Notes: generated by a model from the sequence alone, not told the origin. Shown: positions 5,085 to 24,508, numbered from the stretch's first letter. The stretch is 64,000 bases of DNA from Psychrobacter sp. (GCF_049295055.1 NZ_JBAQQF010000053.1:61871-125870), one strand, 5' to 3'. Program-made: numbers and translations.

Positions 5085-6263
5085 CTATGCGTCAAATTGC
5101 TGCTTGCCATTACGGACAAACGGTAGCTTAAGAACGCGCACATCAACGAATTTACCTTTGCCGCGTAAATCAATTTGCACATTGTCATCGTCTGCTAGGG
5201 TAGCAGGAACACGGGCGATGGCGATAGAGTTTTTGAGGCTAGGAGAGAAAGTACCACTGGTAATGATACCTTTTTGCTCTTTATCAGACCCTTGATTGAT
5301 GGTCACTTCCATACCTTCACGTAATACGCCACGGCTGGTCATTAATAGACCGACTTGTTTCATCGCGGTGTTGTCATCTTTGGCTTGCTTACGTTTACTA
5401 ACAAGTGCTTCGCGACCAATAAAGTCACGCTCATCTTTGAGGGCAAGTGTCCAACCCATGTTTGATTCGTAAGGGCTGATGCTCTCATCCATATCATGAC
5501 CATAAAGGTTCATACCTGCTTCCATACGCAAGGTATCACGAGCGCCAAGACCGGCAGGTTTTATGCCATTGGCTTTTAATTGCTCAAAGAATGCTGGTGC
5601 GTCATCACCGTGCATGATGACTTCGACGCCATCTTCACCAGTGTAGCCAGTACGAGCGACAAACCAATCTTTGCCTTCGATATTGGTTAAGTCAGCACCA
5701 ACAAAAGGCTTGATCGCTGCTAACGTATCCGCCCAGCTAGGTTTGACTTGTGCCAGTTTTTCAACGGCATTGGGTCCTTGAACGGCAAGCATAGCAAGCT
5801 CTGTACGCTCAGTTAACGACACATCATAGTCTGCCGCAGTTTTTTCAAAATGTGCCATGTCTTTATCGCGTGTGCCAGCATTTGATACGATACGGTATTG
5901 CGTTTCTTCGCTATTCGATAAATAAACGATTAAGTCATCGATGATGCCGCCTTGCTCATTTAGCATAGGAGAATATAAGGCTTTACCAACCGTTTTTAGC
6001 TTGTCGACATCATTGGCCAATAATTTCTGCAGCCACGCTTTACTGTCTGCGCCTTGCACATCAACAATGACCATATGTGAGACATCAAACATACCTGCAT
6101 CGCTACGTACTGCTTCATGTTCTTCGATTTGTGAGCCGTAATGAATAGGCAATTCCCAGCCAGAAAAATCTACCAGTTTGCCATCACTATCGACGTGAGA
6201 CTGGTAAAGGGGAGTGCGTTGAGGGGCTTGGGTGCTAGTATTTTGGCTATTGGTATCAGTCAT
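5085..6263 (-). CDS. gcvT: aminomethyltransferase, glycine cleavage system T protein
   Basis: A 392-aa ORF with [30 protein letters not shown] and [18 protein letters not shown]. It is the first gene after the glycine riboswitch. Confidence 0.95.
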
Positions 6264-6460
6264 AACAAATCCTTATGGATACATCATTCGTACTCGATAA
6301 CCAGTAGTAAAAACAAGTATCGAAGTATGAGGGTCGATGCACATTATCATAGTAGCGAGAAGCAATATTGCAGGGTGCAAGCATTGCAACCAAGAGTAGT
6401 ACAGAAAAAAGATAAAACTATCCACCAAACAGACGCTAAACGTCGGTTTAGGCAAAAGCC

Positions 6461-6785
6461 CTATCTGTCCTGTAACCTGAGATTTTCAACACGAATCATT
6501 GTCTATATATGTTCAATATAGCACTAATGATAACGTATTTTCTCCCCTTCGGTGGGTAAGACGTCGTCCGCCTTTACCGCTCTCCAGATTTGTTATGCCT
6601 TATGTTTGAGTGTAATGCGCGATTGACGGCACACTACTAAACCATAATGACATGTGTTTTTCAGTCCTTTTACCTGAGCGATTGGCAGGGTGTATGCGCC
6701 TTCGGTGGTCGAATGGCAATCAATATATCGTATGACCAATGCAGTTTAATACGATATCAACGCCTAAAGACTCTCTCCTGAAAAA
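6461..6785 (-). promoter_or_regulatory. tandem glycine riboswitch (two aptamers) in the gcvT leader
   Basis: On the minus strand, aptamer 1 reads CAGGAGAGAG...CCACCGAAGGCGCA...CUCAGGUAAAAGGACUG (about 6785-6661). Aptamer 2 reads CUGGAGAGCGG...CCACCGAAGGGGAGAA...CUCAGGUUACAGGACAG (about 6590-6463). Both match the conserved GGAGAG / CACCGAAGG / CUCAGG..AGGAC cores, and the element sits directly upstream of gcvT. Confidence 0.8.
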
Positions 6786-7027
6786 CGCTTTTATTATGAA
6801 AGGTTCACAGCATTTTTACAAGTCATCAAAGGTATCAAAGTGAATAATTTTGGCAAAAATGATTTTTTATGATGCTAATCGGTCAAAGTGTAGAGAAATA
6901 AAGCATTTTTATGTCTATGGTAGTGCATAGCTTGTAAAGCGATTTACCATATCAAAACGTAAAGCGACTAATGATATTAGCTTGAAATATGCTAATCTAT
7001 GACCATAGTTTCTGATAGGTTATTCTT

Positions 7028-7348
7028 ATGCATTGCGATATTTATAAATTCCCTAAACATAACGACATGTATGTCTATGTTGCGCGTCCTGATTATCCTA
7101 ACGATACCGACGAGATTAAGGATTGGCTAGGCGTTTTACCAAAAGATTTTCGTGCCAGCTTAGGTCGTAGTGAATTTGTCATGCATTTGGATTTGGCGGC
7201 CACGCCAACGCTTGCTCGTGTCGACAAAGAAGAGGTATTGGCAAAATTACAGTCACAAGGGTATTTTGTACAAATGCCACCCCAAGACGTCATGCGTCGC
7301 CAAGCAGAGTTGCGTGCGCGCGAAGCCCAAGACAATATTTATGATTAG
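7028..7348 (+). CDS. YcgL-domain protein
   Basis: A 106-aa ORF. MHCDIYKFPKHNDMYVYVARPD...LQSQGYFVQMPP resembles the E. coli YcgL pattern (CxIYrS.k....YLYV...GyylQlPP), from memory. Confidence 0.7.
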   Translation: MHCDIYKFPKHNDMYVYVARPDYPNDTDEIKDWLGVLPKDFRASLGRSEFVMHLDLAATPTLARVDKEEVLAKLQSQGYFVQMPPQDVMRRQAELRAREAQDNIYD

Positions 7349-7618
7349 GGTGTATATTTAAAAGCGGTTATTGCTAAATAACTTTAGGATTTCGTCTTTA
7401 ATTTCTTATTTAAAAGTCATGCAATAAAAAATATACTTAACATCGGCTGGTATGCATTTTTGTAGATAGTCGTGATAAACTAATAGCCTATTAAGTGTTG
7501 AATGTGAATGATATGTTGGCGGTATTTATAGTCAAACGGTATATACCGTGTAGCTTTAAAAAAACGCTGAACATAAAAACGTGACGCACAATCTATAAAC
7601 GCAGGTAATAAAACACGC

Positions 7619-8296
7619 ATGGACTGGTTAAAAAATCTCTTACACAGCTTACCGCTGGAAGCCATCAGTGACATTCTCGGTGAGATTGCTATTTGGTGGG
7701 GGCAGCTGGTAAAAGACGTGCCACCGGCCGACTTACCGATGTATGCGTATCTTGGCGGTGTCATTATCGTGTTGATACTTTGGGTACTAGTCGCTCGCGT
7801 ATTGCCACGGCCATTAGGTGGTATGAGCTGGATGATATTGTTTGCCGTTCTGCTCGCTCCGGGGACTGCACTTGGTGATCCGAGTGTGATTGCACCGGCT
7901 AGTATCAGTGTCGTCTATGCGATTATGATGAAAGACACGGCTGGCGCGATTGCTAATTTGTCACCCATATTAGTAGTGCTGGTAGTAGGCTTGTTTGTTG
8001 GCTTTGTTTGGCAGCTCATTCGCGGAGCATTTGAGTCAAGTTTAGATAAAGCGCGTCGCCGTACTTCTGAGGATACGCAAGCTAATATGCAGCTGGCGAC
8101 CGGTAACTATATGGCAGAAAGTGCGACTTTAACGGAAACCTCTGAATTAAATGACAAGTCTAACTTAATCCAGCAGCCCAATAGTACGCCTTTGGCAGCT
8201 AAACCTGAAACAGAGATCAGCTTAAAAAAAGGCAGTTCGAAAATAGATAGTATTTTCGCTAAAAAACGGGATGCAAAAAAACCTGATAAGCGGTAA
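7619..8296 (+). CDS. hypothetical membrane protein
   Basis: A 225-aa ORF with about 4 hydrophobic helices, then a polar Lys-rich tail. It is followed by a terminator. I recognise no family. Confidence 0.6.
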   Translation: MDWLKNLLHSLPLEAISDILGEIAIWWGQLVKDVPPADLPMYAYLGGVIIVLILWVLVARVLPRPLGGMSWMILFAVLLAPGTALGDPSVIAPASISVVYAIMMKDTAGAIANLSPILVVLVVGLFVGFVWQLIRGAFESSLDKARRRTSEDTQANMQLATGNYMAESATLTETSELNDKSNLIQQPNSTPLAAKPETEISLKKGSSKIDSIFAKKRDAKKPDKR

Positions 8297-8354
8297 AACG
8301 AGATTGAAATATCAATAAAGACAATGAGATTTTGTCTTTATTGATAAATAGAAT

Positions 8355-8380
8355 AAAAGACACCGTGAGTGTCTTTTTTT
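8355..8380 (+). terminator. Rho-independent terminator
   Basis: Stem AAGACAC (8357-8363) / GTGTCTT (8369-8375), loop CGTGA, then a T-run to 8380. A second, longer hairpin lies just upstream (8311-8345, ATCAATAAAGACAA / TTGTCTTTATTGAT). Confidence 0.6.
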
Positions 8381-8586
8381 ATGCGTCATAAGTATTGTGA
8401 AGTTATTAGATCTATAAATTGCGTCTTTTTGACAGGTCTTGAGTATAAGGAATTGCGAACGCATGAGTATTTTGGCAATCAACAAGGCTGTGCTAACCTA
8501 AATGATTATTTATCATCCATCGATTACCTATAAACCTTTTATTACTCTTAAATCCTTTAACGTATAACAATAACTGAGATTTCATT

Positions 8587-9450
8587 ATGACTACAACGGA
8601 TAAAACGAAGAAAAAATTTACTGGTACACAAAGCTATATCGCTACTGATGATTTACAATTAGCTGTCAATGCGGCGATGACGTTACAAAAACCGTTGCTG
8701 ATCAAAGGTGAGCCGGGTACCGGTAAGACATTGCTGGCTGAAGAGGTTGCTGAGAGTTTAGGTATGCCACTGATTACATGGCATATTAAATCGACTACCA
8801 AAGCAGAGCAGGGACTGTATGAATACGACGCGGTATCGCGTTTGCGTGATTCGCAAATGGGTGACGATAAGGTGTATGAGATTGGCAACTATATCAAACC
8901 GGGTAAGTTATGGGATGCCTTTACCAGTAAAGAGCGTAGCGTATTATTGATTGACGAGATTGATAAGGCGGATATTGAGTTCCCGAATGACTTGTTGCAT
9001 GAGCTTGATAAGATGTCTTTTTATGTTTATGAGACGGGCGAGACCATTACCGCTGAGCAGCGCCCTGTGGTCATTATCACCTCAAACAATGAAAAAGAGC
9101 TGCCGGATGCATTTTTACGTCGCTGTTTCTTCCATTATATCGATTTCCCAGAAGAAGAAACCATGCGCCAAATTATTGAGGTGCATTTTCCTAATATTCA
9201 AGAAAAACTGGTCAATGATGCGCTCGATATTTTTTACAAATTACGTAACGTTCAAGGACTTAAAAAGCCGCCGTCAACCTCTGAATTGGTCGATTGGTTA
9301 ACGCTATTGCTTGCTGATGATATGGCGCAAGCAGAATTAGAAGAAAACTTGCGTGGTGAAAAGTCTATTCCACCGTTATACGGTGCGCTGCTTAAAAACG
9401 AAGCCGATGTGAATCTATTGCAGCGTTTTGCCAATATGATGCGTCGTTAA
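8587..9450 (+). CDS. MoxR/CoxD-like AAA+ ATPase
   Basis: A 287-aa ORF with Walker A GEPGTGKT and Walker B VLLIDEIDKA. It is paired with a downstream VWA protein. Confidence 0.9.
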   Translation: MTTTDKTKKKFTGTQSYIATDDLQLAVNAAMTLQKPLLIKGEPGTGKTLLAEEVAESLGMPLITWHIKSTTKAEQGLYEYDAVSRLRDSQMGDDKVYEIGNYIKPGKLWDAFTSKERSVLLIDEIDKADIEFPNDLLHELDKMSFYVYETGETITAEQRPVVIITSNNEKELPDAFLRRCFFHYIDFPEEETMRQIIEVHFPNIQEKLVNDALDIFYKLRNVQGLKKPPSTSELVDWLTLLLADDMAQAELEENLRGEKSIPPLYGALLKNEADVNLLQRFANMMRR

Positions 9451-9531
9451 GCGTAAGCTTTGCAGCGAAGATTGAAGCTTAGGCAAACGTTTAAATATTA
9501 ATCATATCAGCCAATAAGTGATGCGACTCTT

Positions 9532-10767
9532 ATGTTTATCAAACTATTCTATACCTTGCGTACTTACGGCGTGCCGGTCAGTACCCGTGAGCTACTTGAC
9601 CTAAATGCCGCGCTTGAGCAAGGGCTGATGATGCAGCCAGTTCTCTCATCAAAGCAGGAAGATTCAGCATTGGCTACCTTTGCCAGCCGCGAAGATATGT
9701 ACCGATTAATTCGGCTTTGTATGGTCAAAGACGAGCGCCACTTTGATAAATTTGATCGAGCAATGGCGGATTACTTTGAAGGCGTTGATAGTCTTGATAT
9801 GGATGAGCTTATGTCTAAGCTGACTGACGTCCCTAAAGAGTGGCTCGACTTAAAATTAGATCCTAAAAACCTCACTGAAGAACAGCGTCGTCTGCTCAAA
9901 AAATATGGCTCGCTTGAAGAGTTGATGAAAGCGCTTGAAGAACGTTTAAAAGAGCAAAAAGAGCGTCATCAAGGCGGTAGTAAATGGGTCGGGACTGGCG
10001 GTACGTCGCCATTTGGCGCCTATGGCGATCATCCAGAAGGCGTGCGCGTTGGCGGTGAGTCGCGTAAACGCAGCGCAGCCAAAGTTTGGGAACAGCGTAA
10101 ATACCGCAACCTCGATGACGATAGTCAGCTTGGTACCCGCCAAATTCAGATGGCACTACGCAATTTGCGCCAGTTTGCACGGACGGGCAGTGCTGATGAG
10201 TTAGATATTCATGAGACCATCAAGCGTACTGCGAAAAAAGGTGTGCTCGATATTCATATGCAAGCGGAGCGTCGCAACCGAGTTAAGGTGCTGATGCTGT
10301 TTGATGTTGGCGGTAGTATGGATATCCATGTTGAAGCACTAGAAAAGCTGTTTTCTGCGGCAAAGAATGAATTTAAAACTTTAGAGTTTTTTTACTTTCA
10401 TAACTGTCTGTATGATTATGTTTGGAAAGACAATGAACGTCGCCATAGCGCACCGATGCCGACCTTTGAGCTGCTCAATAAATACGGTCGCGAATATCGC
10501 GTTATCTTCGTCGGTGATGCCTCAATGTCGCCCTATGAGCTTATGACAGTGGGCGGCAGTGTTGAGTATATGAATAATGAAGCGGGTATCGTCTGGCTAA
10601 AACGCATGCTTGCGCATTTTGATAAAGTCGCGTGGCTCAATCCTGAAGATCCAGCGTACTGGCAATATACCCAAACCATCGTTGAGATTAAAAAACTGTT
10701 TGATAATAAGATGTACCCTATGACTTTGCATGGCGTAGAAGAGATGACCAACTATATGGCGCGGTAG
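9532..10767 (+). CDS. VWA-domain protein (CoxE-like partner of the MoxR ATPase)
   Basis: A 411-aa ORF with a MIDAS-like LMLFDVGGSMD and a C-terminal VWA-like fold. Adjacent to the AAA ATPase. Confidence 0.8.
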   Translation: MFIKLFYTLRTYGVPVSTRELLDLNAALEQGLMMQPVLSSKQEDSALATFASREDMYRLIRLCMVKDERHFDKFDRAMADYFEGVDSLDMDELMSKLTDVPKEWLDLKLDPKNLTEEQRRLLKKYGSLEELMKALEERLKEQKERHQGGSKWVGTGGTSPFGAYGDHPEGVRVGGESRKRSAAKVWEQRKYRNLDDDSQLGTRQIQMALRNLRQFARTGSADELDIHETIKRTAKKGVLDIHMQAERRNRVKVLMLFDVGGSMDIHVEALEKLFSAAKNEFKTLEFFYFHNCLYDYVWKDNERRHSAPMPTFELLNKYGREYRVIFVGDASMSPYELMTVGGSVEYMNNEAGIVWLKRMLAHFDKVAWLNPEDPAYWQYTQTIVEIKKLFDNKMYPMTLHGVEEMTNYMAR

Positions 10768-10843
10768 TGACGGTTTTGAGCATTACTGGACTCACTTCAG
10801 TCATAAATCACTTAATAAAAGTAGCCGTTATGATTCATAACGG

Positions 10844-11710
10844 CTACTTTTTAGTTTCAATGACGCCAATGATAACACCCATCTCTTTCTTATCGTGTTT
10901 ATCGATGCTAGGCGCATACAATGCCGAAGCAATCCCGCCATCCAAAAATAAAGCATTTGGACACTTTAGATAATCTTTGAACAGCGCTGCAAACTGATAA
11001 AAAGTCACAGGCTCATCACTATTGACAAACTGTATGCTGCCATCGTTGCAAACGCCTGCGCCATTACGGAGCTTGGCTGATGCGCTATTGGGGTTAAACT
11101 GTGGGTGAATCTTATTATTGATAACCAGCATCGGCCCTGATTGAGTGGCATACCAAGGTTGTGCTTGACCGCTTTTTAGCTGCTCGTCTAAGGCGTTGCT
11201 TTCAGTGATTTGTACTGCGCCAGTCTTATCCCACCACATGACACCGTTGGGCAATAAGTGAAAGTTGCCGCCACCTTCTTTGAGATTTAACGAATGAATC
11301 TCTTTACCTTCAATGACGGTATAGCCGATAGGCGCGTAGTTCTCATCATACATGCCAGCGTTCATGGCAAAATTCAGCCTTTGGTTATCTGGTAAAGTCG
11401 TCAATAAGTTAGCAAAAGACAGCAATGGCTGAGTGCTATTAGGCTGCTGCCAAAACAGTTGTAATGAATAGTGTCCACTAGTGAGCGCTTCCGCTTTAAC
11501 ACTACAAACACTATAAGCAAATGGTGATTTCTGCGACTCACACGACCCGCTTTCTGTATTGCTATCAGTCACATTATTTTTTGTATCGTCTATTGGCTGA
11601 CAAGCGCTAACACTTAATGCAATCAGCGCTACCGTCAGTAGAGAGGTGGGTGAATTAAAAATGGCGTTTAGCATCAATAACTTATCTTTTATCATAAGGA
11701 AAGATATCAT
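10844..11710 (-). CDS. phosphodiester glycosidase-family lipoprotein (DUF2233-like)
   Basis: A 288-aa ORF with lipobox LSVSAC. NFAMNAGMYDENYAPIGY...FHLLPNGV...QSGPMLV...ALFLDGGIASALY resembles the phosphodiester glycosidase family, from memory. Confidence 0.7.
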   Translation of the reverse strand: MISFLMIKDKLLMLNAIFNSPTSLLTVALIALSVSACQPIDDTKNNVTDSNTESGSCESQKSPFAYSVCSVKAEALTSGHYSLQLFWQQPNSTQPLLSFANLLTTLPDNQRLNFAMNAGMYDENYAPIGYTVIEGKEIHSLNLKEGGGNFHLLPNGVMWWDKTGAVQITESNALDEQLKSGQAQPWYATQSGPMLVINNKIHPQFNPNSASAKLRNGAGVCNDGSIQFVNSDEPVTFYQFAALFKDYLKCPNALFLDGGIASALYAPSIDKHDKKEMGVIIGVIETKK

Positions 11711-11748: not shown

Positions 11749-13557
11749 TTAGTCGTCTGTAGGTGGAAATTCGCGAAAAGTATTATTGACGTTACCGATT
11801 AACTGTCCACCGTCGTTAATGTTAACAAAACTTCCAAGACCTTGTTCGGCTGTCGCACTGGTTTCTCGACCTTTATCACGCGAGTCTTTGTTATAAGCAA
11901 TTAAGGCGTCGTTATTGGCTAAAAAGCTATCAGAATTTGCCATCACCCACATTTGATTAAATACGTCCGCGCGCGCACTATTATTAAGTAACGCTCCCTT
12001 ATCGGTAAAATAAAAGAATTTAGACAATAGTTTAATCTGCCCGTCATCTAAACGGCGAGCAATATGATAAGGCTGCAATTGGCTTGGGTGTTGCAGACCA
12101 ACTGCACCTACAATGCTGGCCAGTGATTTAAGCGTATTCTTATGGAAGCTTGCGACGCGATCAGCTTTGCTAGGCACATCAAGTGCCTTTTGACGATATG
12201 GGTCTTGCGTTGCAACACCGGTTGGGCAGGTATTGGTATGACATGAGCGCGATTGGATACAACCAACGGCAAACATAAAGCCACGTGCTGAATTACACCA
12301 GTCCGCGCCCAATGCAATCAAACGAGCAATGTCAAAGCCGGAAACGATTTTACCGCTGACACCGAGTTTGATTTTGTCACGGATACCGGCACCGACTAAG
12401 GTATTGTGCACCAATAAAAAGCCATCGACCATCGGCATGCCGACATTATCCATAAACTCTACGGGTGCCGCACCTGTACCGCCTTCAGCGCCATCAATAA
12501 CGATAAAGTCAGGATAATTGTCGGCTTCAATCATTGCTTTAACAATCGCCATAAACTGCCAAGGCTGCCCGATACAAAGCTTAAAACCAACCGGTTTCCC
12601 CTCTGATAATTCACGTAGTTGTTGCCAAAACGCGACCAGCTCACGTGGATTACTAAAAGCTGAGTGCGAAGAGGGCGATACGCAATCCTGTCCCATCGGT
12701 ACTTGGCGGGTATCGGCGATTTCTTGCGTAATTTTCTCTGCTGGTAGGACGCCTCCCTGACCAGGTTTCGCCCCTTGTGATAGTTTAATCTCTATCATTT
12801 TAACTTGTGGATCGACGGCCTTTTCGGCAAAAGATTGCGGATCAAAATGACCGTTGTCATCACGGCAACCAAAATAACCCGTGCCCAGCTCCCAAATCAA
12901 GTCGCCACCGAACTTACGATGATAAGGACTGATTGCCCCTTCACCGGTATCATGGGTGAAGCCGCCCATCTTTGCGCCTTGATTGAGCGCCATAATGGCG
13001 TTAGCGGACAAACTGCCAAAGCTCATCGCTGAGATATTAAACACCGACATATCGTGTGGCTGCTGACAACGCTCGCCACCAACAATGATACGAAAGTCTT
13101 TGTTTATGATCGGTTCACTGACAGCTGACTGCAAAAACCATTCTTTACCATGGGCGTATAAATTGTCTAAAGTACCAAAAGCATTGGTATCACTGACGTT
13201 TTTTGCACGTTGATAAACAAGTGCACGCTGCTGACGCGAAAACGGCACTTGTTCCTTATCATCTTCAAGTAAATACTGACGAATCTCAGGACGAAAATCC
13301 TCCAGCACGTAACGAATATGCCCAGCAACCGGATAGTTGCTCAATATCGCATGCTTCGATTGAATTAAATCATAAATACCCAAACCTACACCAATGCCAC
13401 CAATAATAATCAGCCACCAGTTAAACAATAACAGCCCAGCTAAGAACAGCAATATAGTTGCGCCAAAAGTGCCATAGCGCAGCAGCATGCCAGTCAGATA
13501 AGGAGAGGAATTATGATGTTTAGGCTTTGGATTTAGATTGGTACGAGATTGGGGCAT
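11749..13557 (-). CDS. FMN-binding glutamate synthase-family protein with N-terminal TM helices
   Basis: The ORF track gives 11749..13626. I prefer ATG at 13557 (MPQSRTN...). It shows GltB FMN-domain-like motifs: IKLSQGAKPGQGGVLP, IVIDGAEGGTGAAP and SGKIVSGFDIARLIALGADWCNSARGFMFAVGCIQ. Confidence 0.85.
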   Translation of the reverse strand: MPQSRTNLNPKPKHHNSSPYLTGMLLRYGTFGATILLFLAGLLLFNWWLIIIGGIGVGLGIYDLIQSKHAILSNYPVAGHIRYVLEDFRPEIRQYLLEDDKEQVPFSRQQRALVYQRAKNVSDTNAFGTLDNLYAHGKEWFLQSAVSEPIINKDFRIIVGGERCQQPHDMSVFNISAMSFGSLSANAIMALNQGAKMGGFTHDTGEGAISPYHRKFGGDLIWELGTGYFGCRDDNGHFDPQSFAEKAVDPQVKMIEIKLSQGAKPGQGGVLPAEKITQEIADTRQVPMGQDCVSPSSHSAFSNPRELVAFWQQLRELSEGKPVGFKLCIGQPWQFMAIVKAMIEADNYPDFIVIDGAEGGTGAAPVEFMDNVGMPMVDGFLLVHNTLVGAGIRDKIKLGVSGKIVSGFDIARLIALGADWCNSARGFMFAVGCIQSRSCHTNTCPTGVATQDPYRQKALDVPSKADRVASFHKNTLKSLASIVGAVGLQHPSQLQPYHIARRLDDGQIKLLSKFFYFTDKGALLNNSARADVFNQMWVMANSDSFLANNDALIAYNKDSRDKGRETSATAEQGLGSFVNINDGGQLIGNVNNTFREFPPTDD

Positions 13558-13771
13558 AGTAACGCTCAACAATAAGACATGAAAGTTAAAAAACGCACTA
13601 ATTACGAGTAAAAATAAAAGTAACATACTCCAACTATCGATATAGATGATTTGGAAGTAAGCCAGCTTTATCTTAACTTATAATTAACGCGCATATTATA
13701 CGCCTATGATATCACTGCATCGGTGTCATTGGGTAACAGTGTGCTAATGCGGGTTTTGCAGCCCAGTTATT

Positions 13772-14875
13772 TTAAGCTGTAACCTTTACCACTGTTTTTT
13801 TATTATCAATCACGTCAAAGGTAATCTCAACCGGTAAAAACTGTTTTATTAACCAAGCTTGAGTCTCAGTATGCTGACTAATGACGCGTGCAGTAAACTC
13901 ACCGCCACCTGATAAAGCTAAAGGCAGCAGCAACTGGTCGGTTAGATACTCGTCAACTAATGCATCGGTTTTAAACAAGTAACGCTTCACCAAGCCTGCT
14001 AAGCGATTACCCATCTTTTCAGCCGAAGTACGTTTTTCTCCGAGCAAAGTAAATATTTCTTGATGACAGTGTTCGTTATTGTTAGTTTCACCAACTTTAT
14101 GAGTTACTTTTGCGTAGCAAGTATTACCTTCACCGATACCGAGCAGTTTATGGCCTCTTGTGGTAATAAGGGTGTCGTCGATTCCAGATTCAACCAATAC
14201 CGCTTTCGCGCTGGCAAGCTCACGTGTACCAATATCATATTCCAAATTGAGCACACTGGCGACTAGCTCTACGCTCATCATCTCACCACGTTCAATAATT
14301 TTGAAAGGCAACGAGTTAGCACGGCGTAAAAACGGCGTTATCGTTGCTTTGATGGTGCCACCGCCAACGGGCGCGAAGCCTGCTTGTAGACATTCAATAT
14401 CTATTTGCATACCCAACTTAGTAAGCGCAGGAATAAACGCCTGTTGTAAGAAATCTGTGGTTGGTGCCAGTGGATTGTGGGTTCCACCTTTAATCGTTAC
14501 GGTCGATTTTGAATGTTGATTGGTGTTAGCAAAGAGCAGAGCAGGTAATAGCGTTTGTAGCACCAGACTGGTACTGCCAGCCGAGCCAATATCAAAAGTA
14601 TAATCACCTGACTTAATCGTATTTGGCGTAAAGCTAAAACTGCTGCTGCCTAAATCAGCGCCTGACACGTTGGCATCTGATATCGCTTGTGACGCTTGCA
14701 CGCACATTAAATGTTGACGCATTAATCCAGGTTTAGATCGACCAGCACGGATATTGCTAATCTCAATAGGAATGCCCGTCAGCATAGATAGTGATAGGGC
14801 GGTACGGATAATTTGTCCACCGCCTTCGCCTGTGCTGCCGTCGATTTTTAGGGATTTAGTTTTTGATATTGGCAT
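13772..14875 (-). CDS. rtcA: RNA 3'-terminal phosphate cyclase
   Basis: A 367-aa ORF with the RtcA N-terminal signature GSTGEGGGQIIRTALSLSMLTGIPIEISNIRAGRSKPGLMRQHL. Located in the rtc locus. Confidence 0.92.
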   Translation of the reverse strand: MPISKTKSLKIDGSTGEGGGQIIRTALSLSMLTGIPIEISNIRAGRSKPGLMRQHLMCVQASQAISDANVSGADLGSSSFSFTPNTIKSGDYTFDIGSAGSTSLVLQTLLPALLFANTNQHSKSTVTIKGGTHNPLAPTTDFLQQAFIPALTKLGMQIDIECLQAGFAPVGGGTIKATITPFLRRANSLPFKIIERGEMMSVELVASVLNLEYDIGTRELASAKAVLVESGIDDTLITTRGHKLLGIGEGNTCYAKVTHKVGETNNNEHCHQEIFTLLGEKRTSAEKMGNRLAGLVKRYLFKTDALVDEYLTDQLLLPLALSGGGEFTARVISQHTETQAWLIKQFLPVEITFDVIDNKKTVVKVTA

Positions 14876-15084
14876 GATATTAGACTTTCTTATTTTTGGG
14901 GAGGCTTTTAGATTTTTTTAATGATGCTTATCGCATCAGGATAATTAAATAGGTTTTATAAAAATGGAAAGGTTAGAGCGCAATAAAAATAAAATTGAGA
15001 CCGACTGTCATTGTCTGGTGGTAAGGTCTAAATGGTACTTTGTGCCTAGTGAAGTGTATGGGGCATGAGGTGTAAAAAAGACGT

Positions 15085-15190
15085 TTGCCCACAACGCGTG
15101 GCAGCCACTACAGTATATTTTCAACCCCCTGTTGTGGAAGTAAGGGGTCTGACACTCGCCCAGTCGGTTCCAAACGGGTAGTCTGCTTAC
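15085..15190 (-). ncRNA. candidate structured RNA or processing element in the spacer between the DIP1984-like gene and rtcA (strand assumed from operon context)
   Basis: A G+C-rich core sits inside an otherwise A+T-rich 360-nt spacer and contains several complementary segments. These are CCACAAC 15089-15095 / GTTGTGG 15131-15137, ACCCCCT 15124-15130 / AGGGGT 15143-15148, and GCAG..CTAC 15101-15111 / GTAG.CTGC 15178-15186. Some are mutually exclusive. I recognise no known RNA family. Confidence 0.25.
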
Positions 15191-15235
15191 TTACATTAAG
15201 CGCGCAGAGAATTCTGAAATTGGTTTTAAAAATAA

Positions 15236-15694
15236 TTATTCTATCAGGTCAATTTGCCAGTTATTAGCTTGAATAACAATGTTAATCTTGCGAAGTTTCA
15301 TGGCGATGTCATCGGCTTGCTTTTGTAATCCTGACACAGAAACTATAATATTCCATTTAATTTCACGATGGCTATAACGATCTGCTTCAGTCTGTGTCGC
15401 TTCAATGGCATCCACCAATAGCTTATGACGCATCTCTAATGTATCGCGCTCTACCAATAGCGCCAGCATTGACTGACCTTTATCGGTCTGAGCAATGGCA
15501 TTAGTACGATGAATGCGCTCAATCAAAACACTTAGCTCCGTAATGATTTGACTGGCATCAATCATCAGCGTATTAGGATCTTCGCTTGGTGTATCGCCCT
15601 CTTGAACTTTGACATTGTTACGAATACGACCTTTAATCTGTGCTAGCTTTTTTTGCATATCGCTACGGATAAGTAGGGCTTCTGCGAGTTTCAT
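15236..15694 (-). CDS. DIP1984-family (septicolysin-like) protein
   Basis: A 152-aa ORF. MKLAEALLIRSDMQKKL...VKVQEGDTPSEDP...RTN...LLVERD...REIKW...NWQIDL matches my recollection of the DIP1984-family consensus. It starts 29 nt downstream of the HEPN gene. Confidence 0.7.
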   Translation of the reverse strand: MKLAEALLIRSDMQKKLAQIKGRIRNNVKVQEGDTPSEDPNTLMIDASQIITELSVLIERIHRTNAIAQTDKGQSMLALLVERDTLEMRHKLLVDAIEATQTEADRYSHREIKWNIIVSVSGLQKQADDIAMKLRKINIVIQANNWQIDLIE

Positions 15695-15723
15695 TTTGGT
15701 TCTCTCTAAATGTTGATTTCATT

Positions 15724-17355
15724 TTAAATATATATTTTTCGCTCAATAAACTTGCTTTGAATTAAATTATCAGACATATCTTCAAGAGCTTCTTTCTCAG
15801 CTTTGATCCTAACTGCAAAGACGAAAGAGAAAATAGCTGAACGTGTCAATTGTAAAACATGCTCTGCGCTTTCAACAAATTCAGATTCTGGAATAAAAAC
15901 TGGTTCTTCGTAATAAGCTAATGAATTTTCAATACTTTCAGGTTTTTCATTCTCGTAAACAAATACAAAACTATGTTCCAATGCATTCCGCCACTGCTTA
16001 TAAAAACTAAGTTCACCTTCTAGGTTATGATTCAAACCGCAAGCTATGCTATATAAACCAATCAAGCCTTCATTATTATAAGCTTCGAACTTTTGAAGTC
16101 TGTCTTCGTCTTCAAGTTCCCAAAAAGTATGGAAATACGAAGGCCTGACTTTTCCTTTCTTAGTTTTAAGTTGTAAGTCAAACAACAAACCAATAGCGTT
16201 ACCTATTTTATCTAGTACGCCAAAGCAAATCCTAAAAGCGGTACGAAGCTTTTCGATATTTGTTCCTAGTAACTCATTGTCATGCAACTCTGCATAGCAA
16301 GCATCATCGTCTATATTGTTATCTCTCTTAGCAACCTTATATTCGTATAACATTAGCCTAGCAAGTCCAAATTCCGATTTAAGCCTATTTAGTACCTTTT
16401 GCATTAGTAATATGAAATCTCCAGAAATCGCTCTAATAGACATTGGGATATTTAAATTATCACTTGCACTTCCGTAGCATTTGCAATATAAACCATGCTC
16501 ACTAAGACTTAGGAAATTATCCAAACACCATTTTCTAAATTCTGATAAGGATTGGTATTCTTGCTCATCTAAGTGGCTATCATCTTCTATAGCTACTCCC
16601 ATATCTAAACAATCTTTTTCGATATCACTATCTATTTTCTCGGCTCTTATGAGATAAGATTTTGCCCACTGAGGTGGTAATTTGTTAGATTTGCTAGCAT
16701 TCCTAAAACCTAAAGCAATTTCTCTACCTTGTTTAATTGAAGAAGAGTTATTTATTCGACTTATCACACTCAAACACTCACTACGATTTGTCCAAACTTG
16801 TGGAATGTCTAAATTCATTGCGATAACTTGATCATACAAGGCTAACGCCTCGGGAAATCTATATTGCTTTTGCAGGTTTATAGCTAAATTAACAAGATAT
16901 TCAGGTTGAGAGTCTACATCCTGCTTTCTACAAGACAAAATTGCTTTAAAAAATAGAGAGCTTACCTCTGCAAGTTGCTTTATTAGTTCTACATCGGTAT
17001 CAAGTTGATCTCCAGATGAACTTTGAATTAAGTTGCTTTTTGCATTTCCCAGATTGTAGTAATAACTATCCCGAGTTAAAATGTTTGCAAAAACTTCGGA
17101 CTCCATTATGTCAATACCTAGCTCAGATGCTTTATTATTTGACGCCATGTTGCCTAAATCAACGAACAACATTCCCAGCTTGTAAAGTGTGTAAGAGTAT
17201 TGAGTATCATCTTTGTTTACTTCCTCACTCAAAATTGTCTCTATATCTAAACATAGTTTAAAACTTTGATTAAAGTTTCCTAGGTCAATCATTTTTGAAG
17301 CACTTTCAAGTTGAAAATTAATATTTTCAAAATTAATTTGCTCGTGACTTTTCAT
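15724..17355 (-). CDS. helical-repeat (TPR-like) protein with C-terminal HEPN-type domain (LA2681-like); predicted RNase
   Basis: The ORF track gives 15724..17358, which starts at TTG. ATG at 17355 has an AAGGAT RBS 8 nt upstream. The HEPN R-x4-H motif WRNALEHSF is encoded at 15990-15973. The N-terminal half is predicted to be helical repeats. Sampled 60-nt lines give about 32-35% G+C, versus about 55% in rtcB. Confidence 0.7.
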   Translation of the reverse strand: MKSHEQINFENINFQLESASKMIDLGNFNQSFKLCLDIETILSEEVNKDDTQYSYTLYKLGMLFVDLGNMASNNKASELGIDIMESEVFANILTRDSYYYNLGNAKSNLIQSSSGDQLDTDVELIKQLAEVSSLFFKAILSCRKQDVDSQPEYLVNLAINLQKQYRFPEALALYDQVIAMNLDIPQVWTNRSECLSVISRINNSSSIKQGREIALGFRNASKSNKLPPQWAKSYLIRAEKIDSDIEKDCLDMGVAIEDDSHLDEQEYQSLSEFRKWCLDNFLSLSEHGLYCKCYGSASDNLNIPMSIRAISGDFILLMQKVLNRLKSEFGLARLMLYEYKVAKRDNNIDDDACYAELHDNELLGTNIEKLRTAFRICFGVLDKIGNAIGLLFDLQLKTKKGKVRPSYFHTFWELEDEDRLQKFEAYNNEGLIGLYSIACGLNHNLEGELSFYKQWRNALEHSFVFVYENEKPESIENSLAYYEEPVFIPESEFVESAEHVLQLTRSAIFSFVFAVRIKAEKEALEDMSDNLIQSKFIERKIYI

Positions 17356-17396
17356 CAAAATATCCTTATTTTCTTAGAATATATTTTATGTCTAAC

Positions 17397-18629
17397 TTAG
17401 CCTTTAACACAAACCACTTGCCTCAAAGTATGTACGATCTCTACCAAATCACTCTGCGCTTTCATCACGTCGTCAATATTCTTATACGCTGCTGGGATTT
17501 CATCAATCACGTCTACATCTTTGCGGCATTCTACGCCCTCCGTTTGGGCAATTTGATCGGCGACCGTGAAGACTTTTTTGGCTTCAGTACGTGACATCAC
17601 TCGACCTGCGCCATGTGAGCAAGAACAAAACGATTCTTCGTTACCTTTGCCGCGGACGATAAAGGATTTCGCGCCCATCGACCCCGGAATGATACCGTAT
17701 TCACCAACGCGGGCACGTACTGCGCCTTTGCGAGTGACAAAGATTTCCTCACCGTAATGCTCTTCTTTTTCCACATAGTTGTGGTGACAGTTCACCGCTT
17801 TTACGGCGGCATTAAACGGCTTGTTAATGATTTGACGTAGCGCCTTGATGGCTTTTTCCATCATGATCTCACGGTTCTTAAAGGCGAATCGCTGCGCCCA
17901 ACCGACCGCAAACCAGTAATCATCAAAATGCTCTGTGCCTTCCGCAAAGTAGGCCAAATCTTTGTCAGGCAGGTTGATAAACCACTTGCGCATATCTTCA
18001 CGTGCCAGCTCAATAAAGTAGCGACCAATAGCATTACCGACGCCACGAGAGCCTGAGTGCAGCATAATCCATACTTGATTGGTCTCATCAAGACATACTT
18101 CCACGAAGTGATTGCCTGTGCCAAGCGTACCCAAATGATTGAGATTGTTGGTGTTTTTAAGCTTAGGATGCTTTTGAGTCAGATAATTAAAATCATTGAC
18201 CAGCGTTCCCCAACCATCCGTTACACTATTATCAGGGTTTGACCACGCACCAACATCACGACGTGAACCGCGTCCACGAGTTTTACTACGTCCATGAGGA
18301 ATCGCTTTTTCAAGTTCGGTACGTAGACCCAGCAAATTATCAGGCAAATCATTCGCGGTCAGCGTCGTTTGTACGGCCATCATCCCGCAACCGATATCGA
18401 CACCGACCGCCGCTGGGATAATGGCTTCTTTGGTCGGCAGCACCGTACCGATAGTCGCGCCAATCCCGACATGGACATCAGGCATTACCGCGAGCCACTT
18501 ATAAATAAACGGCATTTGCGAGGCTTTAATCAATTGGTTATGAGCTTTAGGATCGACAGGTACACCCTTTGTCCAAAGTCGAATAGGGGTTCCGCCGTCC
18601 TGAATAATATTATGAGTGGTAGGTTGCAT
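17397..18629 (-). CDS. rtcB: RNA-splicing ligase RtcB
   Basis: Motifs PDVHVGIG, GVDIGCGM, GTGNHFVE, HSGSRGVGN, NCHHNY and SCSHGAGR. I prefer ATG at 18629 (MQPTTHN), with AGGAAAG upstream, over the ORF-track start at 18665. Confidence 0.95.
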   Translation of the reverse strand: MQPTTHNIIQDGGTPIRLWTKGVPVDPKAHNQLIKASQMPFIYKWLAVMPDVHVGIGATIGTVLPTKEAIIPAAVGVDIGCGMMAVQTTLTANDLPDNLLGLRTELEKAIPHGRSKTRGRGSRRDVGAWSNPDNSVTDGWGTLVNDFNYLTQKHPKLKNTNNLNHLGTLGTGNHFVEVCLDETNQVWIMLHSGSRGVGNAIGRYFIELAREDMRKWFINLPDKDLAYFAEGTEHFDDYWFAVGWAQRFAFKNREIMMEKAIKALRQIINKPFNAAVKAVNCHHNYVEKEEHYGEEIFVTRKGAVRARVGEYGIIPGSMGAKSFIVRGKGNEESFCSCSHGAGRVMSRTEAKKVFTVADQIAQTEGVECRKDVDVIDEIPAAYKNIDDVMKAQSDLVEIVHTLRQVVCVKG

Positions 18630-18688
18630 CGCACTTTCCTTATATTTAAAAATATAATTTATCATTGAATAATCTGTACTTTATATAA

Positions 18689-18705
18689 TGCTAGGAGTAT
18701 GCCAA
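18689..18705 (-). promoter_or_regulatory. sigma-54 (-24/-12) promoter of the rtcB operon
   Basis: The minus strand reads TTGGCATACTCCTAGCAT, i.e. TGGCAT-N5-TAGCA against the consensus TGGCAC-N5-TTGCW, with correct GG-N10-GC spacing. It lies about 60 nt upstream of the rtcB ATG, and the cognate activator gene rtcR is adjacent. Confidence 0.65.
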
Positions 18706-18821
18706 GTCTTGATAATTGAAGCTATTAATATCCAAGATACTGATATTGTTAATTTAAATTATTAATTTTAGTTGTGTAAGAAGTTTGGCTAAATATACTA
18801 TAGTGTTGGTTTATAGAAAAT

Positions 18822-18839
18822 ATTCTATTCTAATAGAAT
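18822..18839. promoter_or_regulatory. perfect 8-2-8 inverted repeat, candidate upstream activator site (UAS) or operator in the rtcB/rtcR divergent region
   Basis: ATTCTATT ct AATAGAAT, about 120 nt upstream of the -24 element. Confidence 0.4.
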
Positions 18840-18860
18840 TTAAGATATAATTTTGTTTAG

Positions 18861-18889
18861 CGATAATTCAAACTATATATGAATTATCG
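18861..18889. promoter_or_regulatory. perfect 10-9-10 inverted repeat, candidate upstream activator site (UAS) or operator in the rtcB/rtcR divergent region
   Basis: CGATAATTCA aactatata TGAATTATCG. It lies about 160 nt upstream of the -24 element and about 120 nt upstream of the 136-aa ORF. Confidence 0.4.
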
Positions 18890-19009
18890 ATGCTTAATGA
18901 ACCAAACTATCTTTTACATTTTAATCTAGTGAATTTAGCTACCATATTAACTAAACCAAACTTGCTATTATCAACACTAACCAACTGTATAAACCACAAG
19001 GAGATAAAA

Positions 19010-19420
19010 ATGGGTGCTGAAAGTTATCGGAGTGTCACAAAATACCAAGAAGATACCGAGCAAGCATTAAGCGATTTACAACAGCAAATATTTGCAGCAG
19101 GAGAATATCGCTACAGTGAGGATGCTGAAGCTGGTGATATCGATGAGGCACGCGAGTTTGCAGCCGAGGACGGTACGAAATCTGTGTTAGATATCTATGG
19201 GATTAGTGATGAACCTACAATGGCTCATGCAGCGTTAGTGACCGATGATGAAGCCAGATCATGGTTTGGTTGTACGGAAATCGATGAAAAAGATATACAT
19301 AAGATTGATGATTGCAGCGATTTTTGGACAAGTATGGATAGGGGCGAGGCGCGCTATTTAATTTTATATAAAGATGGTAAGCCTTCGCAGTATTATTTTG
19401 CTGGGCTATCTTTTGATTAA
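19010..19420 (+). CDS. hypothetical acidic 136-aa protein immediately upstream of rtcR
   Basis: ATG at 19010 is preceded by AAGGAGAT (18999-19006). The longer ORF-track start (18890) lacks an RBS and adds an A+T-rich leader. The protein is MGAESYRSVTKYQEDTEQAL...ARYLILYKDGKPSQYYFAGLSFD. I recognise no family. Confidence 0.6.
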   Translation: MGAESYRSVTKYQEDTEQALSDLQQQIFAAGEYRYSEDAEAGDIDEAREFAAEDGTKSVLDIYGISDEPTMAHAALVTDDEARSWFGCTEIDEKDIHKIDDCSDFWTSMDRGEARYLILYKDGKPSQYYFAGLSFD

Positions 19421-19456
19421 TTTGAGCCTAAATATTATTAAGCGATTGAACACTAA

Positions 19457-21154
19457 ATGCGTAAAAATAAAACCGCCGTCATCGGATTTCTCGGAACCAC
19501 GCTAGATAATGGCTTTAATGATAAACGTTGGCAGCGTTGGCGACCGACGGTTAGCCTAGGTTTGCATGATGAGTTACTGGTTGATGAGCTGCATATCTTA
19601 TATAGCACCCGTGATAAGCGGTTGTTTAAGATAATAGTTGATGATATTGCACAGGTCAGTCCGCAGACTAAAGTGATTGGTCACCATGTCTCGTTATCTA
19701 GTCCGTGGGATTTTGCGGAAGTCTATGCTGAGCTATATGACTTTGCGGCAGCGTTTGATTTTCAAGATAATACGGACTATTTGCTGCATCTGACTACGGG
19801 CACGCATGTAGCACAGATTTGCTGGTTTTTATTGGTAGAGGCGGGCTTTATTCCAGCAGATTTGCTGCAGACGTCTCCTTGTCCGAGACCAGATCAAGCG
19901 GATCCGCAAGGTCGCTATCAAGTCATAGATTTGGACGTGTCGCGATATGATGGTTTACGTGCACGCTTTGAGGCGGAAAAACAGCAGCATTGGCAAACCT
20001 TGCAAGCCAATCTGGTTACCCAAAATGCTGCTTATCAACAGCTCATATCCGATATCGAAAAGGTGGCTACGCGCTCAACTGCGCCGATACTATTGATGGG
20101 TGCAACAGGGGCTGGCAAGTCGCAATTGGCTAGCCAAATTTACGCGCTAAAGAAAGCCAAAGCGGATAACTCCGTTCAAAATAAATATGCGTTAAATAAA
20201 TTTGTCGAAGTCAACTGCGCCACCTTGCGCGGTGATACGGCAATGAGTGTGCTGTTCGGTCATGTCAAAGGCGCATTTACGGGTGCAGCTTCAAATCGTG
20301 ATGGGCTATTAAAATCAGCTGACGGTGGCTTGCTATTCTTAGATGAAATCGGTGAATTGGGACTTGATGAGCAAGCGATGTTATTAACCGCATTAGAGGA
20401 GCAGCGCTTTTATCCACTCGGTAGTGATACGTCGATTAACGTCTCGTTTCAGTTGATGGCAGGAACCAATAAAGACTTGCGACGAGCGGTTGCTAATGGC
20501 GAGTTTCGTGCCGATTTATTTGCTCGACTCAATACGTGGACGTTCTTTTTGCCATCGCTGAAAGATCGTCTTGAGGATTTACCCGCAAATATTGATTATG
20601 AGCTGGCACGCCTTGGTAGTGAGCAACAGCAGCAATTTCGCTTTGAGCCAAGCGCACGGCAGTTATACGAAGACTTTGCGATGAGTCGCGAGGCAACATG
20701 GCAAGGAAACTTTCGGGATTTGACCGCCAGTATGATTCGCCTGACCACGCTGGCTGAAAGTAAAGTTATTAGGGTAGAGGATGTGCAAGTAGAGATTGAG
20801 CGTTTGTCCAATCTTTGGGGCTTGCCTGACCATTTTAATAGCATGGCTAATAATAGCCTAAGTAGTTTTAACTCTGACTCTAGTTTAGCGTTAGACAGGC
20901 ATTTAATTGAAACCACAAGTCAGAATACTTTAGATAAATATCTTGATAAAGATATCCTTATGAAGGTTGATACATTCGATGCGGTACAACTGGCCTATGT
21001 CATTGAGGTTTGCATCCAGCATAAGAATCAAGCAGCCGCCGGTCGTTATCTTTATGCTCAAACGCGTGATAAGCTGAAAAGTCCCAATGATAGCGATCGT
21101 TTGCGTAAGTACTTAATGAAGTTTGGGCTTAAGTTTGACGAGCTGATTCGATAA
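19457..21154 (+). CDS. rtcR: sigma-54-dependent transcriptional regulator RtcR (CARF-like N-terminal domain, AAA+ domain, HTH)
   Basis: A 565-aa ORF with an RtcR-type N-terminus (KTAVIGFLGTTLDNGF..RWQRWRPTV). It has Walker A GATGAGKS, the sigma-54 contact loop KGAFTGA, and Walker B LLFLDEIGEL. It is divergent from rtcB. Confidence 0.92.
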   Translation: MRKNKTAVIGFLGTTLDNGFNDKRWQRWRPTVSLGLHDELLVDELHILYSTRDKRLFKIIVDDIAQVSPQTKVIGHHVSLSSPWDFAEVYAELYDFAAAFDFQDNTDYLLHLTTGTHVAQICWFLLVEAGFIPADLLQTSPCPRPDQADPQGRYQVIDLDVSRYDGLRARFEAEKQQHWQTLQANLVTQNAAYQQLISDIEKVATRSTAPILLMGATGAGKSQLASQIYALKKAKADNSVQNKYALNKFVEVNCATLRGDTAMSVLFGHVKGAFTGAASNRDGLLKSADGGLLFLDEIGELGLDEQAMLLTALEEQRFYPLGSDTSINVSFQLMAGTNKDLRRAVANGEFRADLFARLNTWTFFLPSLKDRLEDLPANIDYELARLGSEQQQQFRFEPSARQLYEDFAMSREATWQGNFRDLTASMIRLTTLAESKVIRVEDVQVEIERLSNLWGLPDHFNSMANNSLSSFNSDSSLALDRHLIETTSQNTLDKYLDKDILMKVDTFDAVQLAYVIEVCIQHKNQAAAGRYLYAQTRDKLKSPNDSDRLRKYLMKFGLKFDELIR

Positions 21155-21322
21155 ACTAATGTAATGGTTTGGTTTGGTTTGATGAGCTGGTTTGACGGAT
21201 TTTTTTAATAAGTTAGGCTGATTTTTTTAATCATTACTTTCTATCTCATGTGCTAGCATTTAGAACTGAGAGAAAATTCTCACTATTTATTGTTCAGGAT
21301 AACTGAAGCTAAGGAGAACTAT

Positions 21323-24452: not shown

Positions 24453-24487
24453 AAAAAAAGCCTAACGTTTAATGCTAGGCTTTTTTT
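24453..24487. terminator. bidirectional Rho-independent terminator between convergent genes
   Basis: AAAAAAAGCCTA acgtttaatgc TAGGCTTTTTTT, with an A-run and a T-run flanking a 5-6-bp stem. Confidence 0.55.
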
Positions 24488-24508
24488 GGCATACTGATAG
24501 CTGGCAGG

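Follow-up and report, generated by a model that had tools for sequence, protein, structure and literature searches.

The RNA-repair operon in a 64,000-nucleotide (nt) stretch of Psychrobacter sp. DNA (GCF_049295055.1 NZ_JBAQQF010000053.1:61871-125870; this whole stretch is called the window below) carries, between the ligase gene rtcB and the cyclase gene rtcA, a gene for a predicted HEPN ribonuclease (RNase) of the LA2681 family and a gene for a DIP1984 family protein that is followed by a structured RNA. Comparing this locus with its relatives, we observed that the interval from rtcB to the DIP1984 gene is a hypervariable cargo slot in Psychrobacter, and that defence genes collect at the position after rtcB, as at a hotspot that lies within an operon. 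The DIP1984 protein and its RNA form a module typical of Moraxellaceae that is separate from the HEPN protein, and the RNA represents, judging from its covariation, a new structured RNA family, predicted to be non-coding. We favour a functional coupling in which RtcR would drive an effector together with repair enzymes and allow a reversible shutdown, and put the chances of this at about even.

An earlier note on this DNA had described the order rtcR, sigma-54 promoter, rtcB, HEPN gene, DIP1984-like gene, 360-nt spacer and rtcA, all of which lie where it had placed them (Table 1), with rtcR divergent from the four minus-strand genes. Its figures of 29 nt for the gap between the HEPN and DIP1984 genes and of 360 nt for that between DIP1984 and rtcA are exact, whereas the gap after rtcB measures 41 nt instead of 38 nt when counted from the most plausible HEPN start, an ATG at 17355 behind an AAGGA ribosome-binding site, which yields a protein of 543 amino acids (aa). 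Both short gaps come with ribosome-binding sites, and rtcB most plausibly begins at 18629 (MQPT...), not at 18665. A scan of the window found no terminator-like site between rtcB and rtcA, and the 13 promoter-like sites there are no excess over chance (shuffled mean 18.4); the terminator-like hairpin downstream of rtcA is the probable end of the operon. The -24/-12 pattern has two matches in the 64 kb against 0.46 expected, one of which, ~55 nt upstream of rtcB, is conserved across six Psychrobacter loci. The spacing, the co-orientation and the lack of a terminator-like site suggest that rtcB, the HEPN gene, the DIP1984 gene with its RNA, and rtcA are read from one transcript.

Profile searches confirmed the family identities that had been given to both inserted proteins, LA2681 HEPN and DIP1984, and both are 100% identical to NCBI Psychrobacter entries. 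The survey by Anantharaman et al. (2013) describes LA2681 as a HEPN family with a conserved catalytic motif, fused to TPR repeats, and the window protein shows this fusion. Its residues ~1-255 matched KLC and consensus TPR structures in Foldseek (probability 1.0), and weak TPR matches appeared beside PF18733 in the Pfam search. A sequence search of the PDB with the protein gave no match, and a profile search returned TPR chains only (down to 5e-15). This TPR half presumably serves as a sensor or interaction module. In an alignment of 49 homologues, residues R457, N458, L460, E461 and H462 were all invariant, as were E287, H288, Y291, C292, C294 and D300 of a SEHGLYCxCxGSxxDNLxIP block, whose His, two Cys and Asp may bind a metal or belong to the active centre. 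The full-length AlphaFold2 model was all-helical, with a predicted local distance difference test score (pLDDT) of 86 and a predicted template-modelling score (pTM) of 0.89, and its fold search was dominated by TPR structures; residues 255-544 modelled alone reached a pLDDT of 83. The ratio of non-synonymous to synonymous substitution rates (dN/dS) of the HEPN gene, 0.11-0.17, indicates purifying selection, and the gene evolves faster than rtcB (~0.02), rtcA (0.08) and the DIP1984 gene (0.05-0.09). In the homologue of P. immobilis A-11 (L002), an internal stop is flagged near the poorly conserved C-terminal tail, and the protein may end ~19 codons early.

The insertion is not peculiar to this strain, and the refuting case that the earlier note had named, a unique insertion with no recurrent rtc linkage, does not apply: the linkage recurs in Moraxellales and Chitinophagaceae. 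In a scan of one genome per species, which yielded 61 loci with full-length or partial LA2681 relatives, the arrangement rtcB-HEPN-rtcA was found in six further Psychrobacter species (L001, L003-L007), in Acinetobacter marinus and A. rongchengensis (L022, L029), and in a gammaproteobacterial metagenome-assembled genome (L024) that also has rsr (Ro60), between rtcR and rtcB. In Chitinophagaceae (L031 2821-11360; L040 684-6955), the HEPN gene adjoins a different, 489-aa RtcB paralogue, an adjacency that is an independent HEPN-RtcB link; both loci also encode a 1070-aa VIT/Plug/TPR protein, and L031 alone a Band-7 protein. The rtc-linked HEPN proteins group at the base of the proteobacterial clade in a neighbour-joining tree. 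Between Psychrobacter and Acinetobacter they share 43-44% identity, not far below the 48-53% of RtcA and RtcR, as would suit a long-standing association in Moraxellales better than a recent insertion.

To survey the slot itself, we searched other assemblies for homologues of DIP1984 and RtcB. In other Psychrobacter, it is occupied by a DUF7380-DUF4209 protein with the motif RNNIAH (PADLOC model PDC-S39, E=3e-162), by a zinc-finger plus DUF4145 HEPN protein (PD-T7-4, E=1e-15) or by PDC-S32 proteins (E=8e-80 for one of 242 aa, and 6e-55), further contents being small proteins without a family match and a 169-aa open reading frame (ORF) on the opposite strand. The slot of L154 holds an opposite-strand PIN/antitoxin (VapBC-type) pair, and a Moraxellaceae-like metagenome contig has a MazE-like antitoxin and a PIN toxin between rtcB and rtcA. 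Altogether, we counted no fewer than 12 kinds of slot content in Psychrobacter and Acinetobacter, and three HEPN families (LA2681, DUF4209, DUF4145) use the same slot within Psychrobacter. The occupants of HEPN or defence type are co-oriented with rtcB in five of five cases, and most lie close to their neighbours. DUF4209 and DUF4145 figure as HEPN families in the survey by Anantharaman et al., and PD-T7-4 has been described as a known defence protein with HEPN and zinc-finger domains (10.1101/2025.01.08.631726; 10.1101/2022.05.12.491691). The background given in the earlier note, a simple rtcBA in E. coli and inserted rsr-yrlBA in Salmonella, was too narrow, inserts between rtcB and rtcA being common and partly known (PMC12776372): in an unbiased, RtcB-anchored metagenome sample, about half of the generic rtcB-rtcA pairs were contiguous, and the commonest insert was the RlaP nucleotidyltransferase (10 of ~47 sampled loci).

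That the DIP1984 protein modulates the HEPN protein, as had been proposed, was not borne out. DIP1984 genes are present in nine of ten RtcB-anchored Moraxellaceae rtcB-rtcA loci, sometimes in two copies and always without LA2681, as well as on 344 Acinetobacter plasmids and one Psychrobacter plasmid, and they are missing from 8 of the 11 HEPN-bearing rtc loci; the two genes occur together only in the window, L002, L003 and L029. In the two plasmids that we examined, DIP1984 is a lone gene labelled "DIP1984 family protein" or "septicolysin", with no rtc or HEPN gene seen. Since the protein is tied to its own RNA and its co-occurrence with HEPN is inconsistent, we do not consider it a HEPN partner; a HEPN/DIP1984 toxin-antitoxin pair was likewise rejected, given the inconsistent co-occurrence across loci and plasmids. 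By analogy with Ro60 and Y RNA, DIP1984 and its RNA would most likely act as a protein-RNA cofactor of the repair arm. Two loci of Acinetobacter type (L074 2569-7890; L166 1232-6000) carry a metallo-beta-lactamase (Apyc1/RNase Z-like) gene and rsr upstream of rtcB, and DIP1984 with its RNA downstream.

The G+C-rich core that had been noted in the spacer corresponds to a conserved structured RNA (14982-15176, minus strand), and over its first ~250 nt the 360-nt spacer is conserved more strongly than the coding DNA on either side. We aligned 12 copies, taken from both chromosomes and plasmids of Psychrobacter and Acinetobacter. The predicted fold comprises five helices, among them a closing stem of 11 bp, a second stem of 6 bp, a pseudoknotted hairpin and one more hairpin, with a conserved GGCG x GA internal loop. 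In this fold, 94.5% of the cells are paired and 19 of the 35 pairs show compensatory changes among the 12 sequences, as was reached by none of 500 shuffles; sliding the partners lowered the pairing to 26-42%. The thermodynamic stability of the spacer RNA was not significant (z=-0.09), and because this test is uninformative, the case for the RNA rests on covariation. A covariance model placed the RNA 3' of every Moraxellaceae DIP1984 gene examined and nowhere else among ~70 loci, with none at loci that lack DIP1984 and two copies at each of three loci (L068, L074, L166). A plasmid search found it in 347 Acinetobacter records, compared with 344 with a DIP1984 gene, and among the plasmid records listed no feature is annotated under the RNA. 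HEPN and RNA are uncoupled, 8 of the 11 HEPN loci being without it.

With the filters switched off, the model also gave matches immediately 3' of the DIP1984 gene in three other lineages: at 38 bits (E=3e-10) on a Picosynechococcus plasmid, with E=0.0025 in Mycobacterium branderi and with E=0.013 in Paracoccus. Inspection revealed the same plan in Streptomyces and Enterococcus, where the closing stems differ in sequence yet are complementary and the (R)GCG x GA loop is conserved. These matches place the predicted RNA in Cyanobacteria, Actinobacteria and Alphaproteobacteria, and probably in Enterococcus. The actinobacterial copies contain a T-arm-like hairpin, GGGGUUCGACUCCC. As a side observation, outside Moraxellaceae a conserved G-rich tract (GAGGGUGGG-N3-GGGG) directly follows the RNA. 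No Rfam family matched the window spacer or the DIP1984 3' flanks in six lineages. We discarded the idea that the spacer encodes a bacterial Y RNA (YrlA, RF02553), as there was no match at E<=10 on 14900-15240 and the same search finds YrlA in L074, where four tandem YrlA-like RNAs, distinct from the DIP1984 RNA, follow rsr (53-55 bits for three of them and 29 bits for the fourth, against an Rfam gathering score of 69). A canonical kink-turn at the GGCGA x UGA loop was dismissed as well, its pairing register being a misfit on inspection.

HEPN RNases cleave RNA independently of metal and leave 2',3'-cyclic phosphate and 5'-OH ends. Under a functional coupling, RNA damage would produce fragments with 2',3'-cyclic phosphates that activate RtcR, by analogy with Salmonella, for which RtcR activation by such fragments is established (PMC7790460). 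Sigma-54-dependent transcription would then deliver RtcB, the HEPN protein, DIP1984 with its RNA, and RtcA together, and the TPR half might keep the HEPN half latent until a trigger arrives. Once released, the nuclease would be expected, as is typical of its family, to cut RNA without metal into pieces with cyclic-phosphate and 5'-OH ends, which would stop translation (abortive infection or dormancy) and could keep RtcR active, and RtcA and RtcB would contain this self-inflicted damage, or undo it after the nuclease has been switched off. Of this cleave-and-reseal scheme, which the earlier note had sketched, the nuclease-ligase part is plausible, in line with the recurrent linkage, the profile identities, the co-orientation and the tight spacing, and it is better motivated if the effectors are seen as interchangeable RNases that RtcR would induce along with their repair enzymes; the part assigned to DIP1984 did not hold up. 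A wider claim, namely that the Moraxellaceae rtc operon is an inducible, reversible immune module with interchangeable effectors (LA2681, PD-T7-4, PDC-S39, PDC-S32, PIN) and, at the same time, that DIP1984 and its RNA are a phylum-spanning ribonucleoprotein cofactor of repair, appears to us unlikely in its entirety.

Several points weigh against a functional coupling. Each step of the mechanism above is deduced from sequence, and it would be a paradox for a single promoter to drive both a nuclease and the ligase that undoes its work if nothing gated the nuclease, a gate that we purely infer. About 47 of 58 LA2681 loci are not near rtc genes, their neighbours being unrelated and variable, and LA2681 is found in none of the ten RtcB-anchored Moraxellaceae loci. 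In PADLOC 2.0, neither the HEPN nor the DIP1984 protein matched a model, LA2681 having none. P. immobilis A-11 (L002 9001-13200) is a deletion derivative without rtcR, rtcB and rtcA; the site on its chromosome is unchanged, and there the IclR gene is followed directly by the HEPN gene, DIP1984 and the RNA, then by the glutamate-synthase-like gene. Some of these data would also suit a simpler explanation, a serious rival though in our view less likely than the coupling, in which mobile defence or toxin genes gather after rtcB at a recombination or integration hotspot, as happens elsewhere between conserved core genes, the HEPN protein acts alone as an anti-phage or toxin gene product, and its place in the operon is without mechanistic meaning. 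The number of slot contents, self-contained PIN toxin-antitoxin pairs among them, would fit this, and the opposite-strand occupants (the 169-aa ORF and the pair in L154) suggest a plain recombination hotspot. The same holds for the low G+C content of the HEPN gene (0.33-0.35, vs 0.41-0.49 in its flanks), for LA2681 genes in contexts such as that after a P-loop protein gene in Enterobacterales, and for a second variable position upstream of rtcR that gathers unrelated genes (DUF4062), with PT-HINT fragments beyond rtcR in L153. However, a neutral hotspot hardly explains why HEPN or defence-type occupants are consistently co-oriented and closely spaced, with no sign of a promoter or terminator of their own in this window, why the recognisable ones are mostly RNases (three HEPN families and PIN) with products or effects related to RtcB/RtcA chemistry, why a HEPN-RtcB adjacency exists independently in Chitinophagaceae, and why the arrangement persists over family-level divergence. 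It is for these reasons that we favour functional coupling.

A role on the repair side, with the HEPN protein trimming damaged or blocked RNA ends into clean cyclic-phosphate/5'-OH ends for RtcB or excising a segment of a specific RNA that RtcB reseals in an Ire1-like manner, would agree with the end chemistry of the HEPN family, which fits RtcB substrates, with the tight operon, with the cognate structured RNA in the same operon of this strain, and with the HEPN genes inside an rsr-containing repair operon (L024) and a Band-7/RtcB system (L031). Yet a housekeeping function is at odds with the exchange of LA2681 for PD-T7-4, PDC-S39, PDC-S32 or PIN proteins and with its absence from most rtc operons, and the uncoupling of HEPN from the RNA as well as its faster evolution compared to the repair genes render this reading improbable. 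Even less credit is due to a catalytically silent scaffold, in which the TPR and HEPN-like halves would merely bind RNA or protein. Some HEPN families are non-catalytic (PMC3710099), and the PDB fold search with the C-terminal half gave no significant HEPN match (Csm6 6tug, E=1.0; HEPN protein 2hsb, E=2.1), another point that counts against the coupling; because of this, our HEPN assignment rests on profile and motif, not on fold. Still, besides the listing of LA2681 among families with a conserved catalytic motif by Anantharaman et al., the Rx4H motif, in which R is followed by the usual N (RNxLEH), was invariant in 49 of 49 homologues, and we regard such a silent protein as very improbable.

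In metazoans, the HEPN-type (KEN) domain of Ire1 and RtcB act in XBP1 mRNA splicing. The Psychrobacter locus resembles this pair in that a sensor-gated enzyme of the HEPN superfamily would make a cut whose cyclic-phosphate and 5'-OH ends RtcB joins, a likeness that is functional only, as the Ire1/RtcB system is eukaryotic, its genes are unlinked and its substrate is specific. In the conflict between PrrC/RloC and T4 Pnkp/Rnl1, HEPN-type tRNA damage during phage infection is likewise countered by end-healing and sealing, yet there nuclease and repair belong to opposing genomes, whereas in Psychrobacter both would be host genes of one operon. The Salmonella rtc operon (2020, PMC7790460) shares the divergent RtcR (CARF plus sigma-54 AAA+), the -24/-12 promoter, RtcB and RtcA, and contains a scaffold protein and non-coding RNAs; unlike it, Psychrobacter has a predicted HEPN RNase and DIP1984 with its own RNA between rtcB and rtcA. 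We considered the Gifsy-1 HEPN of Salmonella as a precedent for RtcR activation and rejected it, as it is dispensable according to its authors. In Pseudomonas rtcB-rlaP-rtcA operons, an accessory gene also stands between rtcB and rtcA under RtcR (RlaP, PF10127; Burroughs and Aravind 2016, as cited in PMC12776372); RlaP, however, is a predicted repair-side enzyme, while the Psychrobacter insert is a predicted nuclease in a slot that varies among strains. The nearest published idea is the feedback proposed for CoCoNuT systems, by which HEPN-made cyclic-phosphate ends would activate the RtcR-like regulator (Bell et al. 2024, PMC11090510): types II and III-A combine HEPN nucleases with RtcR-like CARF/sigma-54 regulators, but are McrBC-type and have no RtcB/RtcA in the operon, whereas Psychrobacter co-encodes the canonical repair enzymes. 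Homologues of PD-T7-4, PDC-S39 and PDC-S32 (PADLOC; Vassallo et al. 2022, 10.1101/2022.05.12.491691), the first two of HEPN type, fill the slot of LA2681; unlike them, LA2681 matches no PADLOC model, and a defence role is suggested by its position.

As regards DIP1984, Ro60 (Rsr) with Y RNA/YrlA offers a close parallel, in that RtcB operons there too contain the gene of a small protein of scaffold type along with a structured RNA that belongs to it. Burroughs and Aravind (2016) reportedly describe a further pair of this kind, in which a Band-7 protein goes with a tRNA-like RNA, and the T-arm-like hairpin of the actinobacterial DIP1984 RNAs is another point of likeness. DIP1984 differs in that it has no relation to TROVE or SPFH domains, that its RNA matches no Rfam model, and that the module also occurs alone on plasmids. 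In the literature searched, which excluded that 2016 work, neither the presence of HEPN or defence genes in rtcBA operons nor the DIP1984 RNA proved to have been described.

It is still a matter of debate what bacterial RtcB and RtcA act on in nature and what they are for. If the proposed coupling is true, an rtc operon with its own RNases would provide a genetic handle on whether Rtc recovers cells from self-inflicted, immunity-related RNA damage, and defence effectors would answer to a CARF/sigma-54 regulator that senses damage, with a repair arm as their counterpart. Besides, LA2681 TPR-HEPN proteins would be nominated as defence genes missing from the 2023 catalogue (PADLOC 2.0). Separately, DIP1984 with its RNA may be a third protein-RNA pair beside Ro60/Y RNA and Band-7/tRNA-like RNA. 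The RNA is a first functional lead for the DIP1984 family, whose structure has been solved (3kdq) and for which no role is known. The protein is mis-annotated as a cytolysin ("septicolysin") on widespread Acinetobacter plasmids associated with carbapenem resistance, hundreds of them from clinical A. baumannii. With a slot for defence genes and a phylum-spanning DIP1984 RNA, the locus holds more interest than one unusual operon would.

Table 1. Features of the rtc locus and of related loci. Positions refer to the window unless a locus number is given.
Feature	Position	Strand	Evidence
Terminator-like hairpin downstream of rtcA	13689-13703	-	only minus-strand terminator-like site in 13500-19500
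rtcA, RNA 3'-terminal phosphate cyclase	13772-14875	-	PF01137 E=2e-74; TIGR03399 326 bits vs cut-off 250
DIP1984-associated structured RNA, ~195 nt	14982-15176	-	covariance model R1, 198 bits
DIP1984/DUF6847 family protein, 152 aa, helical	15236-15694	-	PF20935 E=6e-47; NF038048 166.9 bits vs 70; PDB 3kdq E=3e-22
TPR-HEPN protein, LA2681 family, 543 aa	15724-17355 (in-frame TTG upstream at 17358)	-	PF18733 117.3 bits vs 27
HEPN domain (Pfam match), residues 320-518	15805-16401	-	PF18733
RNALEH, the Rx4H catalytic motif of HEPN RNases	15973-15990	-	translation
SEHGLYCxCxGSxxDNLxIP motif, between TPR and HEPN parts	16471-16530	-	alignment of 49 sequences
N-terminal TPR-like helical-repeat domain, residues ~1-255	16594-17355	-	Foldseek and profile matches
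rtcB, 3'-phosphate/5'-OH RNA ligase	17397-18629	-	PF01139 E=6e-131
Predicted sigma-54 (-24/-12) promoter TGGCATactccTAGCA, TGGCAT-N5-TAGCA	18689-18704	-	pattern search and conservation
136-aa ORF directly upstream of rtcR	19010-19420	+	no Pfam, NCBIfam or PADLOC match; NCBI: hypothetical
rtcR, CARF + sigma-54 AAA+ + HTH activator	19457-21154	+	NF038308 equivalog 693 bits vs 650; PF06956, PF00158; PADLOC RtcR--CARF_AAA_HTH
Defence/toxin genes at the post-rtcB position	L068 4224-5984; L069 1345-2055; L153 6311-7039; L071 1637-2074; L154 6867-7556; L075 2454-3114		
Second variable position	window 19010-19420 (+); L001 7478-8482; L003 7559-8515; L153 321-2989; L161 4110-5624		
Further RNA copies, ~140-195 nt	L151 5481-5694; L167 3478-3660; L170 1986-2153; L168 1978-2134		
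G-rich tract	L167 3631-3660; L170 2137-2165; L169 2143-2170; L168 2111-2140		

The second variable position mentioned above lies between the rtcB promoter and rtcR. The window holds there a 136-aa ORF, which the first account of this DNA did not include, and other loci have DUF4062, an S9-like hydrolase or a 504-aa ORF without Pfam match; in L153, the PT-HINT toxin-like fragments are on the far side of rtcR. The IclR-type regulator gene that in other Psychrobacter (e.g. in L062) stands between an acyl-CoA dehydrogenase gene and rtcR is missing from the window at 21154-21290. A scan of the window revealed no tRNA or tmRNA, neither rsr nor YrlA was found across the rtc region scanned, and a weak Rfam match to PinT inside rtcB (25.8 bits; gathering score 60) was put down to chance. 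Away from the rtc genes, LA2681 genes of five Enterobacterales loci (L015, L016, L018, L021, L030; ~5870-11515) always follow the gene of a 1356-aa protein with an N-terminal P-loop, which gave a weak NPHP3_N/STAND-like match and no PADLOC match, and the two may form a two-gene system. The other -24/-12 match of the window, TGGCATACTGATAGCT (24487-24502, plus strand), lies downstream of an aldehyde-dehydrogenase-like ORF that ends at 24374.

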